NCBI GenBank assembly: GCA_041946735.1
Contig: JBHGAY010000019.1
Coordinates: 32,001 to 96,000 of the forward strand
Direction of reading: 5' to 3'
DNA from: Candidatus Eiseniibacteriota bacterium
GTDB lineage: Bacteria > Eisenbacteria > RBG-16-71-46 > CAIMUX01 > VGJL01
Length of the DNA stretch: 64,000 bases
Shown here: positions 9,009-15,734 of the stretch, one piece after another
How positions within the stretch are numbered: the stretch's first letter is position 1
How the letters are laid out: each line of letters opens with the position of its first letter
Position numbers and translations under genes: made by a program
Notes under the pieces: model-generated
The model's input: the letters and a program-made list of their open reading frames with translations, nothing else
What the model was told of the DNA's origin: nothing
Database searches by the model: none

Positions 9009-12000
9009 CTATTTCAGAAGCGTGACGGTGCGGACCGAGAGGGCGTCCGGCGTGTCGAGCCGGACGAAGTAGACGCCGGACGGCAGCGGGCGCCCCGCGC
9101 CATCTCGGCCGTCGAAGTAGATCGTGTGCGAGCCGGCCGCAACCGGCCCGTCGACGAGCCGGCGCACGACGCGCCCGCTGACGTCGACGACCTCGAGCCG
9201 CGCCGCCATCGCCCGCGCGATCGCGAAGCGGATCGCCGTGCGCGGGTTGAACGGATTGGGCCGGCAGTCCTCGATGGAGGTCCTGAGAATCGTCGCGCCG
9301 TCCTCCGCGCCCGTCACCGGCCGCCGGTTCGCCGTCAGCTGGAAGTCGTCGACCGCCGCCTCGACGAGCGATCCGGGCGCGACGTCGCCCGCGACGAAGC
9401 GCACGCGCACCTGATCGGTCAGCGCCACGTAGGCGGCCAGATCGAACGCGTAATGCGTCCAGGAGTTTGCGCTCTCCGTCGTGTGCTCGAGGTGCACCCA
9501 GTTCGCCCCGTCCGCGGTCACGTCGACGTCCCACGTGTCGAGGTCCGGGCTGTTGCCGAGATCGTTCGTGTACCAGCGCCAGTACTCGATCGAGGCCGAG
9601 GTGGCATCGCCGAGATCGAACACCGGCGACAGCAGCGTCGTCTTGCCGCCGTCGACGTCCGCCTCCCCCGCCGCGCCGCCGACCGACCCGTTGCCGGTCA
9701 CGAAGCAGATCGTCCCGGGAGTCGAGGTGTGGTCGTCCTCCGGCTGGCACGGACTGCCGTTGTAGACCGTCCCGACCGGATCGGCCCGCGTCCAGCGCCC
9801 GCTCGACGCGTCGTCGTCGGGCGCGGCGAGCGCCCATCCACGGTCCGCCTCCGCGTCGTCGACCCACGCGCCGACGAAGACCTCGTACTCGAGGTCGGTC
9901 TCGTACCCCATCGGACAGGAGATCGCGAGCTGGAGCGCGAGCGCGCTCGGGCTCGGGCAGCCCGGAAGCACCCGCAGGCCGAAGCCGCCGATCACCCCCT
10001 CGCCGCTCGCCGTCACGCGCAGGCAAACCCCCTCGCCGTCCGTCACGACGACGTTCGGATCGGAGCAGGTCAGCGTCCCGGTGAGGTTGCACGCGTCGGC
10101 GTGGCCCGCGTTCGCGACCTCGGCGGTGAAGAAGACCGTCTCGTCCGGATCGATCCCGCCGTCGCCGTTGCCGTAAGGCGCGGAGTCGTCGATCCCCACC
10201 GGCCCGGAGAGGAGCGCCGGAGCGTGGACGAGGGTCGAGAACGCCGAATCCCAATCGCCCTGATCGGCGTGCGCCGAGGCGGTCCACGCGATGACGTAGC
10301 CGTCCGGCGCGTGGCCGGCCACCCGCACCCCCTGCCCGCTCGGCGAGACGACGACCTCGCCCGGCGCGATGTCGCCGAAGTCCAGTTCGTTGGAGGTGAT
10401 CACGACGAGCGGATCGGCGCTCGCCGCCGAGCCGGTCACGTGCGTCGCCGGCTGCGTCCCGACGTTCTTCAGCGCCAGCTTGAGCGTCGCGTCCTCTCCC
10501 GCGTCGAGGTAACCGTCCGCGTCGCCGGTGAGAGCGTCCTCGATCACGACGTGATCGAGGACGAGATACGGGCCGCTCGGCGGGATGACCTGCGTGGTCC
10601 CCTCGAACGGCAGGAAGTCGTGCGCCGCGACGGTCAGGCGCAGCGTGCAGGGAACCACCGGCTGCGGATGCAGGACGACCTGACCCGCCAGGTTCGTCAC
10701 GCCGGTGTCGTAGACGCCGAAGCTCTCGTCGTAGACCGTCACCTGCGCGCCCGCGATCGGAAGGCCGCCGAGTTGCGTCACCGCGACCGGATAGTCGGGA
10801 TTGCCGATCACGAACGCCTGCGGATAGCTGACGCTCGCCGTCCGCGGCGCCGCCGTCCACAGGTGCATCGCCGGATCGCCGAAGAGGTTCAGCTCGTAAT
10901 AGCACCAGCGATTCGCGCCGTAGTCGATCGCCCAGAGGACGTCGACCCTCGAGTCGTCGTTGACGGGGCCGATCGCGTAGATGCGCTCGGAGAACATCGC
11001 GTCGAAGAACTCCCGGTCGAAGAACTGCGAGGAGCCGTTCGTCCCGCCCGGATCGCCCCATCCGTAGCGGGAGTTCATGACGACCGCGGCGGCGCCGTGG
11101 TCGTCGGTCTGGAACTCCTCGGCGAAGCAGTCGCTGCCGTAGCCGCCGCCGTCGCCGCGGTTGTCGAACGATCCGCAGTAGCAGCCCTGGCTGTAGACGA
11201 AGTTGTAGCTGTGGGTGACACCGTCGTTGTCGAAGGAGGGGATGTCGGTATTGTACAGCTTCATCGCGTAGTCCACGTTGGCGTGTCCCAAGTGGTTCAC
11301 GATGTTCATCCCGCTCTCCATCCGCTGGATCAGCTGCGCGCCGGACCAGGTCCCCTCGTGGTCGTAAAGCCACGTGACGTTCATCGAGCCGGGGAACCCG
11401 ACCGTCGTGTAGCCGTTGGCGCTCGAGCCGAGACGCACCTCTTCCTTGTACGTGTCGCCGTAGGTGAGCGGGTTCGACCAGAGCAGCTCGCCCGCCATCA
11501 TCGCCTCGCCGCTTTCCGCGACGACCGGCGCATTGGCATAGCGCGTCGTCTTCGTCACGAACGCGCTCATCTCGGCCGCCTCGTCGACGCACGCGCGTCC
11601 GACCGCGACCTCCGGAATCATGTCCGCCTCGGCCGGCTCTCCCCAGTAGCCGTCGCCATCGGTGTTCCAGTTGCCGTCGAGGCCTCCATAGTACAGGTCG
11701 GCGGGAATGTCGCTGTCGGAGTCGCCGTAGTCGGTGCTCGAGTAGAGCCCGCGATGCGGGATTCCGTTGGCGTCGCGCGCGTCGCCGACGAGGAGCAGGT
11801 AGTCGGAGCCCCAGGTCTGGTACGCGTCCTTCACGAACTCGCGAATCTTCGCCTGGTCGTCGACGCCTGTATAGTTCGCCACGATCCAGGACATCAGGAA
11901 GATCGCCGCCTTATGGCCGCGCGCGCTCTCGAAAGCGACGAGCGGCGCGCACCCCGCCGCCCAGCTCTCGGTGGTGACGATCAGGTAGGTGATCCCGAGC

Positions 12001-12707
12001 GAGGGATCGAGCGCGCGGCTCCCGCCGGCAGGCTGGACCAAATCGTAGGCGCTCGCGTCGCCCGGATTGTCCACGCGCCCGGCGAGCGTCTCGCGGGTCG
12101 AGGCGTCCTTGCGCAGCATCGCTTCGGTCTCCCGGTACGCGGCGAGGCTCGGAGCGGTCTCCACCTCGACGTCGAAGGAGCGAACGACCGACAGCCGTCC
12201 CTCCGCGGGAATGTACTCGAAGGGATGGAGCACGACGGTCAGGATCCGGTAGCCGCGATAGAGCGCGGCGTGCGGCTCGTCGTTCCACCGTCCGGGGAAA
12301 GGAAGCGACGAGCCGTAGATCGCCGGATCGCCTTCGACGCGCGCGGGCGGCTCGCCGGAAGAGAGATGCGCCTGCGGCTGGCCCGGAGCGATTTCGATCC
12401 CGCTCCCGAGCTCGTGGCGCTCGCCCGGCAGGACGGAGATGCGCACCAGCTCCTCCCCGGGGGGAAGCAGCAACCGCGCGCCGATCATCGGAAGGACCGG
12501 CTCGCCGGGCCGGCCGAAACTCCACGCTCCCTCGAGCGTGACCTGGACCCCTTGGCCGGTCCGCTCCAGGACCGGCTCGGCGAAGTCGTAGTGCTGGCGG
12601 AGAACGGTCGCGCCGGCCAGCGTGGCGAAGGTCAGGGTACCGAGGATCGCCAGGGCGATCCCCAGCCCAATGCGGGCGGTGCCCGCGCACGGCCTCGCGA
12701 AGTGCAT
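9009..12707 (-). CDS. C25 (gingipain-family) cysteine peptidase with propeptide, Ig-like domains and C-terminal FlgD-Ig/T9SS-like domain
   Basis: Propeptide GEPVLP; YLLLVGD; ADLYY; VAVGR; catalytic His in NHLGH and Cys in SQGCYCGSFD; NLFGDP; C-terminal PNPFNP...SGVYFVRL...VTLLK. Confidence 0.9.
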   Translation of the reverse strand: MHFARPCAGTARIGLGIALAILGTLTFATLAGATVLRQHYDFAEPVLERTGQGVQVTLEGAWSFGRPGEPVLPMIGARLLLPPGEELVRISVLPGERHELGSGIEIAPGQPQAHLSSGEPPARVEGDPAIYGSSLPFPGRWNDEPHAALYRGYRILTVVLHPFEYIPAEGRLSVVRSFDVEVETAPSLAAYRETEAMLRKDASTRETLAGRVDNPGDASAYDLVQPAGGSRALDPSLGITYLIVTTESWAAGCAPLVAFESARGHKAAIFLMSWIVANYTGVDDQAKIREFVKDAYQTWGSDYLLLVGDARDANGIPHRGLYSSTDYGDSDSDIPADLYYGGLDGNWNTDGDGYWGEPAEADMIPEVAVGRACVDEAAEMSAFVTKTTRYANAPVVAESGEAMMAGELLWSNPLTYGDTYKEEVRLGSSANGYTTVGFPGSMNVTWLYDHEGTWSGAQLIQRMESGMNIVNHLGHANVDYAMKLYNTDIPSFDNDGVTHSYNFVYSQGCYCGSFDNRGDGGGYGSDCFAEEFQTDDHGAAAVVMNSRYGWGDPGGTNGSSQFFDREFFDAMFSERIYAIGPVNDDSRVDVLWAIDYGANRWCYYELNLFGDPAMHLWTAAPRTASVSYPQAFVIGNPDYPVAVTQLGGLPIAGAQVTVYDESFGVYDTGVTNLAGQVVLHPQPVVPCTLRLTVAAHDFLPFEGTTQVIPPSGPYLVLDHVVIEDALTGDADGYLDAGEDATLKLALKNVGTQPATHVTGSAASADPLVVITSNELDFGDIAPGEVVVSPSGQGVRVAGHAPDGYVIAWTASAHADQGDWDSAFSTLVHAPALLSGPVGIDDSAPYGNGDGGIDPDETVFFTAEVANAGHADACNLTGTLTCSDPNVVVTDGEGVCLRVTASGEGVIGGFGLRVLPGCPSPSALALQLAISCPMGYETDLEYEVFVGAWVDDAEADRGWALAAPDDDASSGRWTRADPVGTVYNGSPCQPEDDHTSTPGTICFVTGNGSVGGAAGEADVDGGKTTLLSPVFDLGDATSASIEYWRWYTNDLGNSPDLDTWDVDVTADGANWVHLEHTTESANSWTHYAFDLAAYVALTDQVRVRFVAGDVAPGSLVEAAVDDFQLTANRRPVTGAEDGATILRTSIEDCRPNPFNPRTAIRFAIARAMAARLEVVDVSGRVVRRLVDGPVAAGSHTIYFDGRDGAGRPLPSGVYFVRLDTPDALSVRTVTLLK

Positions 12708-12926
12708 TCCTGCAGACCTCCTTGGATGGAAGAAGCGAGGCCGGCAGACCCGCCGCCGTGCGGCATCGGGGCGAAAGAATCGGGTCGTGGGCGGCCTCTC
12801 CACACCGCGCCTGCACGCCGGGCACGCGATCGCCGGGCGCCCGAGGGGGACGCGGGGAGAGACGGGAAGGTCGGTTGCGGCCGTCCTGCGGTCCACGCGG
12901 CCCCATGCCGCGTGCAAGCAGGGGCA

Positions 12927-12955
12927 ATTGTACAGGCGACGGCGGGGCCCCTCAA
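12927..12955 (-). promoter_or_regulatory. Sigma70-type promoter for the C25 peptidase gene
   Basis: TTGAGG-N17-TACAAT on the minus strand, about 220 nt upstream of the start codon. Confidence 0.6.
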
Positions 12956-13491
12956 GGCGGGAGGGAGGCGCCGGATGCGGGAGGGAAGCACACGGGAGGG
13001 AAGGGAGGGAGGGACGGAGGGGGGCGCTCGGCGGGCCCGGCGGTGCCGGCGCCGTCTTCCCGGGTCAGCGCGGCGCTCGCACGCCTGCGGGCGGCATGTT
13101 CCCGCGTCAACACGGCGCTCGCACGCGCTCGCGAGGCAGGTTCCCGCGTCACCATGGCGCTCGCACGCGCTGGCGAGGCATGTTCCCGCCGCACCTTGGC
13201 GCTCGCACGCGACCGTGAGGCAGGTTCCCGCGTCACCTTGGCGCTCGCACGCGACCGCGAGGCATGTTCCCGCCGCACCTTGGCGCTCGCACGCGACCGC
13301 GAGGCAGGTTCCCGCGTCACCTTGGCGCTTGCACGCGCTCGCGAGGCAGGTTCCCGCGTCACCATGGCGTTCGCACGCGCCCGCGAGCCAGGTTCCCGCC
13401 GCACCATGGCGCTCGCGCGCGCTCGTGAGGCATGTTCCCGCCGCACCATGACGTTCGCACGCGTTCGGTCGCCGTATTCCCGCCGCAACAT
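12952..13491 (-). CDS. Possible heptad-repeat, Arg/Ala-rich protein encoded by the tandem array (179 aa)
   Basis: GGAG-N7-ATG at 13491; translation repeats V(T/R)RE(H/P)AS-RARASA(M/K). Other frames are also open, so coding status is uncertain. Confidence 0.3.
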   Translation of the reverse strand: MLRREYGDRTRANVMVRREHASRARASAMVRREPGSRARANAMVTREPASRARASAKVTREPASRSRASAKVRREHASRSRASAKVTREPASRSRASAKVRREHASPARASAMVTREPASRARASAVLTREHAARRRASAALTREDGAGTAGPAERPPPSLPPFPPVCFPPASGASLPP

Positions 13492-13518
13492 GGCTGTTCT
13501 CCGCCAATGTGCGCCGCG
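13057..13518. repeat. Tandem array of 11 x 42-bp units (each two related 21-bp halves)
   Basis: TTCCCG recurs exactly every 42 bp (13057, 13099, 13141 ... 13477). Consensus TTCCCG(CGT/CCG)CACC(A/T)TGGCGCTCGCACGCG(CT/AC)CGCGAGGCA(G/T)G. Terminal units are degenerate. Confidence 0.97.
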
Positions 13519-13786
13519 GCGCGGCCGCAGCGCCGCCCCCTCACGCCCTCCAACGCTATCGTTATTCTTTTTCTCTTCGAGCTTGCGACATCCCCGTTTA
13601 TGAAATCGACCTCTCCACAAAAATAAATTTCCGGGGCAACTCCAACATTCCTGGCAACTTGCACGAAACCGCCCCCGCTCGCGTCCCTGCGCCGCGTATC
13701 CTTTCGACCCCCTCGTGCGTATGGGATGTAGAGCCTCGCCGGCCGGGCCCCGAAGGTCCTTTTCCCGGCGGGGTGGGGAGGATCAG

Positions 13787-14482
13787 ATGAGACTGCCATC
13801 GCGGTCCACCAGTGCACGGATCCTGCTCGTCTTCTACGGCGCCTACCTCATGGTCCGGCTCGGCGTGGAGTCGCTCCTCGCCGAGATCCTGGAGTTCTTC
13901 CGTCCCTTCCAGGAGCGGCTCACCTCCTGCCTGGAGGCCTACGACCGGGCGGTGCTGCGCGCGCAGCAGGCGCTCGCGCTGCGCGATCACCGCGACTTCC
14001 TCCTGGATCGTGAGATCCTGATGCTCTACAACGTGCTCCTCGCGCGCGTCGGCGGAGACCGCGACGCCGCTTCGTTCCGGGCCTACTTCCCCGACGGGCT
14101 GCCCGCCGTCACCCGCGTCGCCGCGCCCTACGAGCTGCGGCGCGTGGCGGTGCTCCAGCAGAAGCTCGCCGAGGAGGCGATCCCGGAGATCGCGGCGTAC
14201 GGCGCGCCGATCGCGGCGGCCGCGCAGGCCCTCCAGGAGGCGCTCGACGGGTACACGCAGGCGCTCACGGCGCGCGAGGCGGCGTCCGGGCTGCTCGAGG
14301 TCGAGAAGGCCAAGTGGCTCGACGGCTACGCGCAGACGTTCCGCCGCCTGCAGCTCCACTTCCACGACGACCCGAAGCGGGCGGAGGAGTTCTTCCGGGT
14401 CCGCCCGCGGAAGGGAACGCCCATCGAGGAGCCGAAGGCGACGGCGCCCGAGCCGGCGCAGAGCGCGACGGCGACGTCGTAG
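13787..14482 (+). CDS. Hypothetical all-alpha-helical protein (231 aa) next to the repeat array
   Basis: GGGGAGGA RBS before ATG 13787; typical GC-rich third codon positions; long amphipathic helices; YFPDG and AEEFF motifs; low-complexity tail. Confidence 0.85.
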   Translation: MRLPSRSTSARILLVFYGAYLMVRLGVESLLAEILEFFRPFQERLTSCLEAYDRAVLRAQQALALRDHRDFLLDREILMLYNVLLARVGGDRDAASFRAYFPDGLPAVTRVAAPYELRRVAVLQQKLAEEAIPEIAAYGAPIAAAAQALQEALDGYTQALTAREAASGLLEVEKAKWLDGYAQTFRRLQLHFHDDPKRAEEFFRVRPRKGTPIEEPKATAPEPAQSATATS

Positions 14483-14594
14483 CCGCGGGCCGGCTCCCGG
14501 TCTAGACAAGGGCGCGCTCCGGGCCGGGGGTCCCGGGGCGCGTCTCCTTGCGGGCGGCAGGCGATCCGGAACCTTCTCGCTCGCTCCGTCGGCG

Positions 14595-15353
14595 TCAGCT
14601 TCCCAGCGGAACCGTGACGGAGACGAGCGGAGGGACGGGAAAGGCCCCGGCCACGGGAGAGCCGAAGCGCTGCACGCCGACCCCCGCCGTGATCGCCCAC
14701 TCGATCCGACCGGACCGCAGGCGGACCGCCGGGAGCAGCAGCAGCGTCGAGTCGAAGCCGTCGTCGGCGCCGGCCGCTCCCCAGAGGGCCTCGAAGCCAT
14801 AGGTCGCGCGGCCGCGCGTCCACTCCCCGGCGCCGAAGAAGGAGACCTGCGGATTGCTCCAGTCGTAGCGCCCGCCGGGATACTCGGAGCCGGGCATCGA
14901 GTGGACGGCGAGGCCGCCGTGGAAGCGGGCGGGACGCACCGGGGAGCTGACGAGCGCCGCGACCGCGTCGATCCTTCCCCCCTCCCCCTCGCCGCGCGAG
15001 ACGACGAAGCCCCCGATCGACTGGGCGAGGATCGCGCTCCCCCACGTGTCACCGTCCGGCACGGTGAGCGACAGCTTCGCCGATGCGGACAGCACGCCGC
15101 CGAAGGTGTCGAGGAACCAACTGCCGCCGAAGTAGCCGGAGACCGACAGGCGGGGAACGACGGGAACGGCGAGCTCCGCGACCAGCGCGGGCGGAAAGAC
15201 GAGCGCGTGCCCGGCGATCTCCGGCTGCGGGATCGGATCGGCCGTCGGCATCAGCGCGACGACCGGACTCGCCGCGGCCGGCGCGGCGAGGATCGCCCAC
15301 GCGGCGCAGGCCGCCGCGAACAGCCGCCCGCGCGCCACGGCGCCAAGGGGCAT
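14595..15353 (-). CDS. Hypothetical exported protein, probable small beta-barrel
   Basis: Signal peptide (AILAAPAAA); alternating beta-strand pattern; abuts the stop codon of the upstream gene. Confidence 0.65.
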   Translation of the reverse strand: MPLGAVARGRLFAAACAAWAILAAPAAASPVVALMPTADPIPQPEIAGHALVFPPALVAELAVPVVPRLSVSGYFGGSWFLDTFGGVLSASAKLSLTVPDGDTWGSAILAQSIGGFVVSRGEGEGGRIDAVAALVSSPVRPARFHGGLAVHSMPGSEYPGGRYDWSNPQVSFFGAGEWTRGRATYGFEALWGAAGADDGFDSTLLLLPAVRLRSGRIEWAITAGVGVQRFGSPVAGAFPVPPLVSVTVPLGS

Positions 15354-15734
15354 CTACTTCTCCCCGCTCGTCCCGACGAACCAGTCCTCGCGATCGGCGA
15401 AGAGAACGTTGAACGTGGTGAACGTCCCGTAGACGCGCGAAATGTAGGCTTGCAGCTCCACGCGCTCCGCGTCGTTCAGCTTCGGATGGTTGTTGATCTT
15501 CTGCTCGAGCACGCGGAGCTTCTCGCGGGCCATGACGAGCTTGTGGAAGAACGCGTCGATCGGGACCGACTTCTCCTGCGTCCCGGCCTTCCCGGGACGC
15601 AGCACGATCTCGCCTCCCTCCCAGCGTCCCGCGAGGTCCGGCTCGCGACCGCCGAACAGGCCCGCCTCCTCGAAGCTCCGCCGCATCTCCTGGCGGATGA
15701 CGCCGGCGATCTCACGTATCGATTCGCTGTCCAT
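15354..15734 (-). CDS. Conserved hypothetical protein (126 aa)
   Basis: GGAGGAGG RBS; protein-like RWEGGEIVLRPG...IDAFFHKLVMAREKLRVLEQKIN...YGTFTTFNVLF, which I recall as a Bacteroidota-type hypothetical family. Confidence 0.8.
   Translation of the reverse strand: MDSESIREIAGVIRQEMRRSFEEAGLFGGREPDLAGRWEGGEIVLRPGKAGTQEKSVPIDAFFHKLVMAREKLRVLEQKINNHPKLNDAERVELQAYISRVYGTFTTFNVLFADREDWFVGTSGEK

Follow-up and report, generated by a model that had tools for sequence, protein, structure and literature searches.

A non-coding 42-bp tandem array paired with the gene of an apparently undescribed all-helical protein family in Candidatus Eiseniibacteriota

In plasmid origins of the iteron type, phased direct repeats of about 17-22 base pairs (bp) are followed by an AT-richer stretch and then by an autoregulated rep gene, the Rep proteins being of the winged-helix kind. 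As given in PMC3177203, the sopC site of the F plasmid is built of 12 direct repeats 43 bp long, and SopB, a dimeric protein whose gene lies beside the site, binds a 16-bp inverted repeat within each of them. KfrA of plasmid RA3 is portrayed in parts of PMC7783346 as a mostly alpha-helical, oligomerising protein with a mapped N-terminal helix-turn-helix, which binds a direct-repeat operator before its own gene (five 9-bp repeats overlapping the promoter) and has plasmid partition partners. In type III toxin-antitoxin loci (ToxIN, CptIN, TenpIN), according to the relevant sections of PMC3401426, the toxins are endoribonucleases, the promoter lies before the array, a terminator hairpin is found 1-50 bp from array and gene, and ToxI consists of 5.5 repeats of 36 nucleotides (nt). 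Here we report on a locus of related layout in a 64,000-nt stretch of Candidatus Eiseniibacteriota DNA (assembly GCA_041946735.1, contig JBHGAY010000019.1, positions 32,001 to 96,000), which is called the window and whose first letter is position 1. A tandem array of 42-bp units is followed in it by a spacer and by the gene of a 231-amino-acid (aa) all-helical protein, P0001. The array is non-coding, and the pairing of a 42-bp array with a gene of this protein family is conserved and not due to chance. The two main parts of the locus are the following:

13057-13518, no strand assigned: tandem array of 11 x 42 bp in two alternating unit variants (Tandem Repeats Finder, register, column variability, flat GC phase)
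13787-14482, + strand: gene for the 231-aa all-helical protein P0001 (codon GC, ribosome binding site, paralog alignment)

Tandem Repeats Finder (TRF) called a 42-bp period at 13057-13462 (9.7 copies, 84% matches) and an 84-bp super-period (87% matches). Slicing of 13057-13518 every 42 bases gave 11 units with zero indels, the final two being degenerate, and the 11 phased repeats of a preliminary description of this DNA are therefore in strict register. Two near-invariant boxes, TTCCCGC and GGCGCTCGCACGCG, recur in each unit at a distance of about 20 bp, and the super-period arises from two positions that alternate between successive units. The array is the sole large tandem repeat in the window. 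The same description had considered that it might encode a heptad-repeat partner protein, a candidate that we rejected: guanine-cytosine (GC) content per codon phase is flat across the array (0.73/0.73/0.71), the variability from unit to unit has no 3-base rhythm, the four long open reading frames (ORFs) spanning it have no family in Pfam, and sister arrays with periods of 43 and 83 cannot keep frame, which excludes a coding role. A search of Rfam over 11500-15500 gave no match at E up to 1. The units stand head to tail with no unique spacers between them and no Cas family was found in the ORFs scanned, so that the array does not have the make-up of clustered regularly interspaced short palindromic repeats (CRISPR). 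Elsewhere in the genome, a CRISPR-like array unrelated to the module lies at C17:76812-78692, with about 24 copies of a repeat some 37 bp long at a period of 74.

Eight copies of the gene were counted in this genome, a count that the preliminary description had called for. Arrays with a period of 42 or 43 and with other sequences lie 5' of the gene where contigs C15, C7 and C21 carry it. The copy on C24 has a degenerate 43-bp row of sites upstream, composed of sites resembling motif 1 (a conserved upstream motif, see below) at spacings of 86, 43 and 85 bp, which fits a view of the arrays as multiplied operator sites. The C40 copy is without an array, and on C65 and C27 the contig end is too near the gene for an array to be judged. 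The C40 paralog (L039, C40:7472-8194) also lacks motifs 1 and 2 and stands head to tail directly 5' of a gene for a 1345-aa protein with a secretion tail, in an operon-like arrangement.

The pairing was examined at 30 family loci from 11 genomes by taking the best self-identity among lags of 15-99 in a 126-bp window. The best upstream lag was 42 or 84 in 21 of the 30 loci and, with the lag set broadened to 41-43 or 83-86 after inspection of the data, it fell within this set in 27 of 30, compared with 0/30 downstream. Such a lag was also obtained in 88 of 1500 random 1.5-kilobase (kb) windows of this genome, 23 of these 88 reaching an identity of at least 0.5. The enrichment of period-42 (or 43, 83/84) arrays in the upstream flanks of homologs, which had been set out beforehand as a check, is thus clear. 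TRF arrays of 2 to 18 units were found upstream of 13 of the 30 loci, and the near edge of the array lies at a median of about 253 bp 5' of the start codon (range 107-1033, 24 loci), always 5' of the conserved promoter-like motifs. At least 15 array types are mutually unrelated in sequence. No conserved partner gene occurs within 1.5 kb at the 30 loci, and neighbours with a secretion tail were seen at 4 of them, approximately the genome base rate. The array and the gene also duplicate and diverge together. In a relative, array, spacer and gene have been duplicated as a single block (L020/L029). Two paralogs at 76% DNA identity have arrays that can be aligned at about 62% (manual count), and at the orthologous loci L027 and L033 of two genomes array and gene have jointly been kept at about 80% identity. 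A further set was provided by the relatives of a family member labelled Acidobacteriota at NCBI, which are found on metagenome contigs of 47-62% GC. Nine of their upstream flanks were usable (at least 250 bp), two loci being too short. The top lag was 42 in 4 of the 9, three of which may be close kin, and a further one had a 42-bp TRF array, while the downstream flanks of this set were without period 42.

What the arrays have in common is their period and not their sequence, the period being 42, 43 or 83/84 in every case (41.5-43 bp per unit); the register is held almost perfectly even by a relative's arrays, which run from 14 to 30 units. The k-mer tests were run on 15-17 of the 24 delimited arrays, mostly those of clearer periodicity, with 1-7 consensus units added and the other 7-9 left out. 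A max-count test over 16 array types revealed no k-mer common beyond shuffles. A per-k-mer test returned GAAC in 10 of 20 types and ACGCGT in 5 of 20, which are only hints given that many k-mers were tried and that the shuffles were mononucleotide ones, and TYCC-N0-6-GGRA in 4 of 24 array types against 0.47 expected is likewise a hint only. The units are, moreover, enriched in dyad-symmetric sites. Over 24 array types, a unit's best inverted repeat had a mean of 6.63 pairs, compared with 5.75 in random genomic 42-mers (P = 0.0004) and 5.67 in shuffles, where 0/200 sets attained the mean observed in the arrays. Seven or more dyad pairs were present in 14 of 24 units, in comparison with 24.5% of random 42-mers.

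The gene for P0001 is well supported, in agreement with its first reading as a clean + strand gene. Its GC by codon position (0.74/0.46/0.95) is as in real genes of this DNA, GGAGG stands 6 nt 5' of the ATG, and the alignment of an N-terminal M-R-x-P across the paralogs makes the ATG at 13787 preferable to a GTG at 13715. No match to P0001 was found in Pfam, NCBIfam, PADLOC, PHROGs or PDB sequences, 100 members of its family were likewise without a match in Pfam, and a word-index protein search with P0001 returned the query itself only. With a profile of this genome's seven full paralogs as query, a library of 1.84 billion representative proteins yielded 1088 clusters, defined at 50% identity, at E <= 0.001, of which 446 had E <= 1e-10. 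Lengths are mostly 200-300 aa among the 150 clusters listed. Those members that carry a name are all called "hypothetical protein", their bins bearing the labels Candidatus Eisenbacteria, Latescibacterota and Acidobacteriota, and look-alike clusters in a protein atlas are labelled mostly Myxococcota and Acidobacteriota. Nearer to the window, the family is carried by 11 of 41 related genomes with 1 to 20 copies each, and by 11 of 206 genomes of the phylum, which are the same 11 and all belong to the order of the window. No description of the module was found in the literature, with subscription journals outside the coverage, and judged by these searches the family is undescribed and part of no described family.

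An AlphaFold2 model of P0001 based on a 100-sequence alignment reached a mean predicted local distance difference test (pLDDT) of 95.5 and is an elongated all-helical bundle. It has long helices at 29-87 and 139-191, two shorter helices, and a loop bearing the conserved FPxG that had been noticed earlier; among 7 paralogs F101 is nearly invariant and P102 invariant. Foldseek against the PDB and viral models gave nothing at E <= 0.001. A known fold was sought in a wider structural search and rejected, since only generic helical bundles were returned. The best of them were the McpZ and McpS sensor domains, with Z of 10.1 and 9.7 and root-mean-square deviations of 4.4 and 3.5 over 185 and 188 residues, scores that fall below the meaningful level for helical proteins. 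Modelling as a homodimer, with contacts through helices 15-28 and 53-71, gave a score of 0.75 (best of 3 controls 0.00), 100% contact agreement between runs and a partner pLDDT of 91. A mark of 0.75 was reached by 20 of 30 proteins solved as pairs of identical chains and by 1 of 23 solved as a single chain, counts that apply only roughly here because a custom alignment was used for P0001.

Arrays of this kind are also found where the gene is not. A second copy of the window array (type A), 74-77% identical, is divided between two contig ends with a 30-base overlap and has no gene of the family adjoining it. Type B is present in two copies, of which only one accompanies a paralog. In a relative, G015, one array type occurs at 15 places, 2 with the gene and 13 without, at 76-94% identity to the gene-linked copy over the matched pieces. 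Five of these gene-less copies were read, and in them homology extends over the array and about 30 bp beyond, the copies starting and ending at varied unit phases with no shared termini and no target duplications. In one of the five (L088, C15:9049-9795) the array and about 170 bp of the usual spacer are followed by a MarR-family gene, with no helical-protein gene, as though the module had lost its gene or had it replaced. The preliminary description had proposed a two-part system, and had named recurrence of the array beside unrelated genes as a finding that would speak against it. A conserved unit of array and protein has stood. Exclusivity has not, since the array type of the window has a gene-less copy in this genome and one type of G015 has 13 such copies, and recurrence beside unrelated genes was therefore found in part.

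In this genome, the unrelated neighbours of arrays are often the 3' ends of secreted-protease genes with a FlgD_ig-type secretion tail. Of the 11 array loci, five have such a tail within 1 kb, compared with 10.7% of random positions, though the sample is small. These tail-proximal 42/43-bp arrays are at C5:115342-116202, C55:10401-10562 with C43:7-168, C6:46309-46473, C7:129935-130073 with C32:1-111, and C15:39346-39428, and the tail genes near arrays encode C25, M36 and M1 peptidases and a beta-helix protein. Altogether, 255 ORFs of the genome carry a FlgD_ig-like C-terminal secretion domain, the C25 peptidase of the window included, which amounts to an unusually large secretome. Many contig ends of this genome fall within such arrays. 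Moreover, in three metagenomes from three studies (X1-X3; soil, industrial waste and rhizosphere) the short-read contigs extend over the flanks and all break inside the window array. Short-read assemblies thus break in the arrays, and the modules are under-assembled and under-annotated in metagenome genomes.

The remaining features of the locus lie on either side of the array:

12952-13051, no strand assigned: G-rich tract including (GGGA)n at 12994-13022, of uncertain membership in the module (TRF, sequence)
13519-13786, + strand: lower-GC spacer with motifs 1 and 2 and GGAGG at 13777-13781 (GC profile, sequence)
13588-13601, + strand: motif 1, core ACAT-N2-3-CGTTTAT (genome pattern scan and by-eye alignment of paralog upstream regions)
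13696-13721, + strand: motif 2, a putative promoter, core CTCGTGCGTA at 13712-13721

The AT-rich spacer first reported is a stretch of lower GC, at 0.595-0.605 over 13500-13800 against 0.70-0.77 either side, and the array ends 268 bp 5' of the start codon and about 180 bp 5' of the putative promoter motif. The motif 1 pattern has 5 occurrences in the 4.9-megabase genome, every one 5' of a paralog. Motif 2 is common to 5 paralogs and lies about 105-157 bp 3' of motif 1; in three of the five (C7, C21, C24) it reads CAACC-N16-17-CGTA. Promoters used by extracytoplasmic function (ECF) sigma factors are marked by an AAC-type -35 element together with a CGT-type -10 element, and the putative promoter of these three copies is of this ECF-sigma-like kind. 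In the window copy TATCC occupies the -35 place, which makes the promoter assignment weak for this copy. GAACC-N14-CGTC or CGTA is present at loci of two related genomes. The strict promoter pattern was found in 8 of 31 upstream regions and 0 of 31 downstream regions, with a shuffle mean of 0.75, one alone of the C7, C21 and C24 copies falling within these 31 loci. On its left the module is flanked by the gene of a C25 peptidase (Pfam PF01364; 9009-12707, - strand), whose sigma-70-like promoter (12955-12927, - strand) is about 100 bp from the array, and on its right by a convergent ORF of 252 aa that belongs to no family. As had been noted at the outset, Cas, transposase and reverse transcriptase are missing nearby, with no such family in the 11 ORFs scanned around the locus. 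Simple consensus scans of the window gave neither terminator-like sites nor, ahead of the array, a sigma-70-like promoter on the + strand. The (GGGA)n tract immediately left of the array could form a G-quadruplex on the + strand, and a comparable G-rich tract adjoins array B on contig C21 (71369-71434), in that case on the gene side.

We tentatively favour, as a possibility that falls somewhat short of an even chance, the reading that the array is a phased multi-site platform of double-stranded DNA to which a dimeric protein is predicted to bind and on which it would assemble, this protein probably being the one encoded next to the array. The array would be a row of operator-like sites placed 5' of the gene's own promoter, one site per 42-bp unit, that is, per four helical turns, with all sites on one face of the helix. 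One dimer would occupy each unit, and adjacent dimers would join laterally to form a single extended nucleoprotein complex. The likeliest binder would be the all-helical P0001 itself, for which a symmetric dimer was modelled. Such a complex might set the expression of the P0001 gene (autoregulation), and on other chromosomal arrays of the same sequence type it might mark or regulate further loci. The fixed four-turn unit with a drifting sequence, the dyad-type site, the place 5' of the promoter and the lack of a consistent RNA signal argue for a function as double-stranded DNA with sites on one face. P0001 is the best candidate for the binder because its gene is the sole constant neighbour and is duplicated together with the array, because each paralog has its own array type, and because the protein is modelled as a symmetric dimer. 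We infer the binding of a protein to the array, P0001 as its binder and the role of the complex, and on balance the evidence leans towards the array as a DNA rather than an RNA partner of the protein.

A number of observations weigh against this platform. The window's own unit has a weak dyad of 5 pairs. The protein core is near-neutral (family median net charge +1; P0001 -1, with an isoelectric point of 6.9), and no DNA-binding fold or family was recognised in P0001 by sequence and structure searches, a diverged helix-turn-helix being possible. Motifs 1 and 2 are near-identical before paralogs with just 23-33% identity to P0001, which suggests that these motifs are read by shared host factors and not through paralog-specific recognition. 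Only 4 of the 11 array loci of this genome adjoin the family, the others lying beside unrelated genes, and a third gene copy in G015, at 73% protein identity, has a quite different array that is found nowhere else in that genome. Furthermore, the 30 loci include orthologs and recent duplicates, so that their counts overstate independence, and the good folding of several sister arrays as single strands leaves room for an RNA function.

Such a function would be of the type III toxin-antitoxin kind, in which the array is transcribed and cut to units of about 42 nt that bind and inactivate the helical protein; the unit length would then mirror the geometry of a protein-RNA complex and not that of the DNA helix. 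We regard this as unlikely. The layout fits, a tandem array standing 5' of a small protein gene, and so does the patchy multi-copy distribution (11/206 genomes, 1 to 20 copies), which is common for such modules, but the protein is all-helical with no match to the ToxN, CptN or TenpN families, and arrays of up to 30 units are found far from any family gene. Folding is divided as well. Of nine arrays folded as single strands, five reached z <= -3 on at least one strand, yet the better-folding strand is gene sense in about 4 and antisense in 5, which speaks against one conserved RNA, and in the window the + strand folds worse than shuffles (z +2.46) while the - strand is shuffle-like (z -0.38). 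At one G015 locus (L020:2300-2355) two terminator-like T-run hairpins stand between array and gene on the gene's strand; however, they are within shuffle expectation (2 found; mean 1.0, sd 1.1), and in the window the consensus scans gave neither a terminator-like site nor a + strand promoter before its array. The promoter-like conserved motifs lie between array and gene rather than before the array, and the Rfam search named no known RNA.

It has also been considered that the array is a self-spreading satellite, a selfish or mobile 42-bp element that seeds loci, with the protein as its helper, as RAYT is for repetitive extragenic palindromic (REP) sequences, or as a frequent passenger. This appears distinctly unlikely. 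The many gene-less copies in G015, the second copies of types A and B in this genome, the part of the spacer retained at L088 and the patchiness of the family among close relatives are all in line with such spread. Against it, the five copies that were read have neither common termini nor target duplications and differ in unit phase at their ends, no nuclease or recombinase fold or motif was recognised in P0001, the joint retention of array and gene at L027/L033 looks like vertical descent, and the constant four-turn unit would be left unexplained. A platform for another factor, on which a host protein or in-phase DNA bending tunes nearby promoters and the helical gene is simply the one most often so controlled, is to our mind improbable to the same extent. 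It would account for same-period arrays beside unrelated genes, for the divergent peptidase promoter so close to the window array, for the near-neutral protein core and for the sharing of motifs 1 and 2 by diverged paralogs; the lack of a common k-mer in the max-count test, however, makes a single shared sequence-specific factor unlikely, and the tie to the helical family (27 of 30 loci) is far tighter than to any other gene.

Returning to the platform read by the adjacent gene's product, a wider version of it may be put forward, although we consider it rather doubtful. The modules could form a chromosomal class of satellite plus reader, in which each paralog dimer polymerises on its own 42-bp satellite and the gene-less satellites serve as extra docking sites. 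If true, it is the DNA helix rather than the sequence that would set the unit length, and the satellites would spread with their reader. The family would mark, silence or bridge chosen loci, here often near secreted-protease genes, as a bacterial counterpart of satellite DNA and satellite-binding proteins. The arrays themselves show a simple rule, a unit length kept at four helical turns while the sequence drifts freely, and the physical question is what reads DNA per 42 bp on one face.

Among the systems described at the beginning, type III toxin-antitoxin loci share the tandem fixed-length array directly 5' of a small protein gene, which is present here; they differ from this module, where the protein is all-helical, consensus scans gave no such terminator or promoter in the window and arrays also occur without the gene. 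Plasmid iterons show the same order of repeats, AT-richer stretch and gene of the presumed binder, but here the unit is 42 bp, there is no match to a Rep family, the copies are many and chromosomal, and a tblastn search of plasmid and phage collections with P0001, of limited reach with its one query sequence, found no plasmid or phage context. In comparison with REP/RAYT, P0001 has no match to a transposase (Y1 HUH) family and is all-helical, though dispersed gene-less arrays do exist here. KfrA is closer in its helical nature and in the place of its operator, while in the present module no helix-turn-helix was detected, the units are of 42 bp and number up to 30, and they lie 100-1000 bp 5' of the start codon, the window array ending about 180 bp before the putative promoter motif with no overlap. 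The F-plasmid pair sopC/SopB (ParABS type Ia) is approached most closely in logic, namely in the direct repeats of 42-43 bp, the dyad-enriched units and the adjacent gene for a modelled dimer. The differences are that P0001 and the scanned neighbours include no ParB-type, ribbon-helix-helix or other known DNA-binding family and no ParA partner, and that the module is chromosomal and multi-copy, with the array upstream and not downstream of the gene and differing in sequence from paralog to paralog. By analogy, array and protein would resemble sopC/SopB in logic without being a member of that family. If the platform reading is true, a widespread unnamed protein family and its DNA partner would join the few bacterial systems with long phased arrays, which are mostly plasmid centromeres and iterons.

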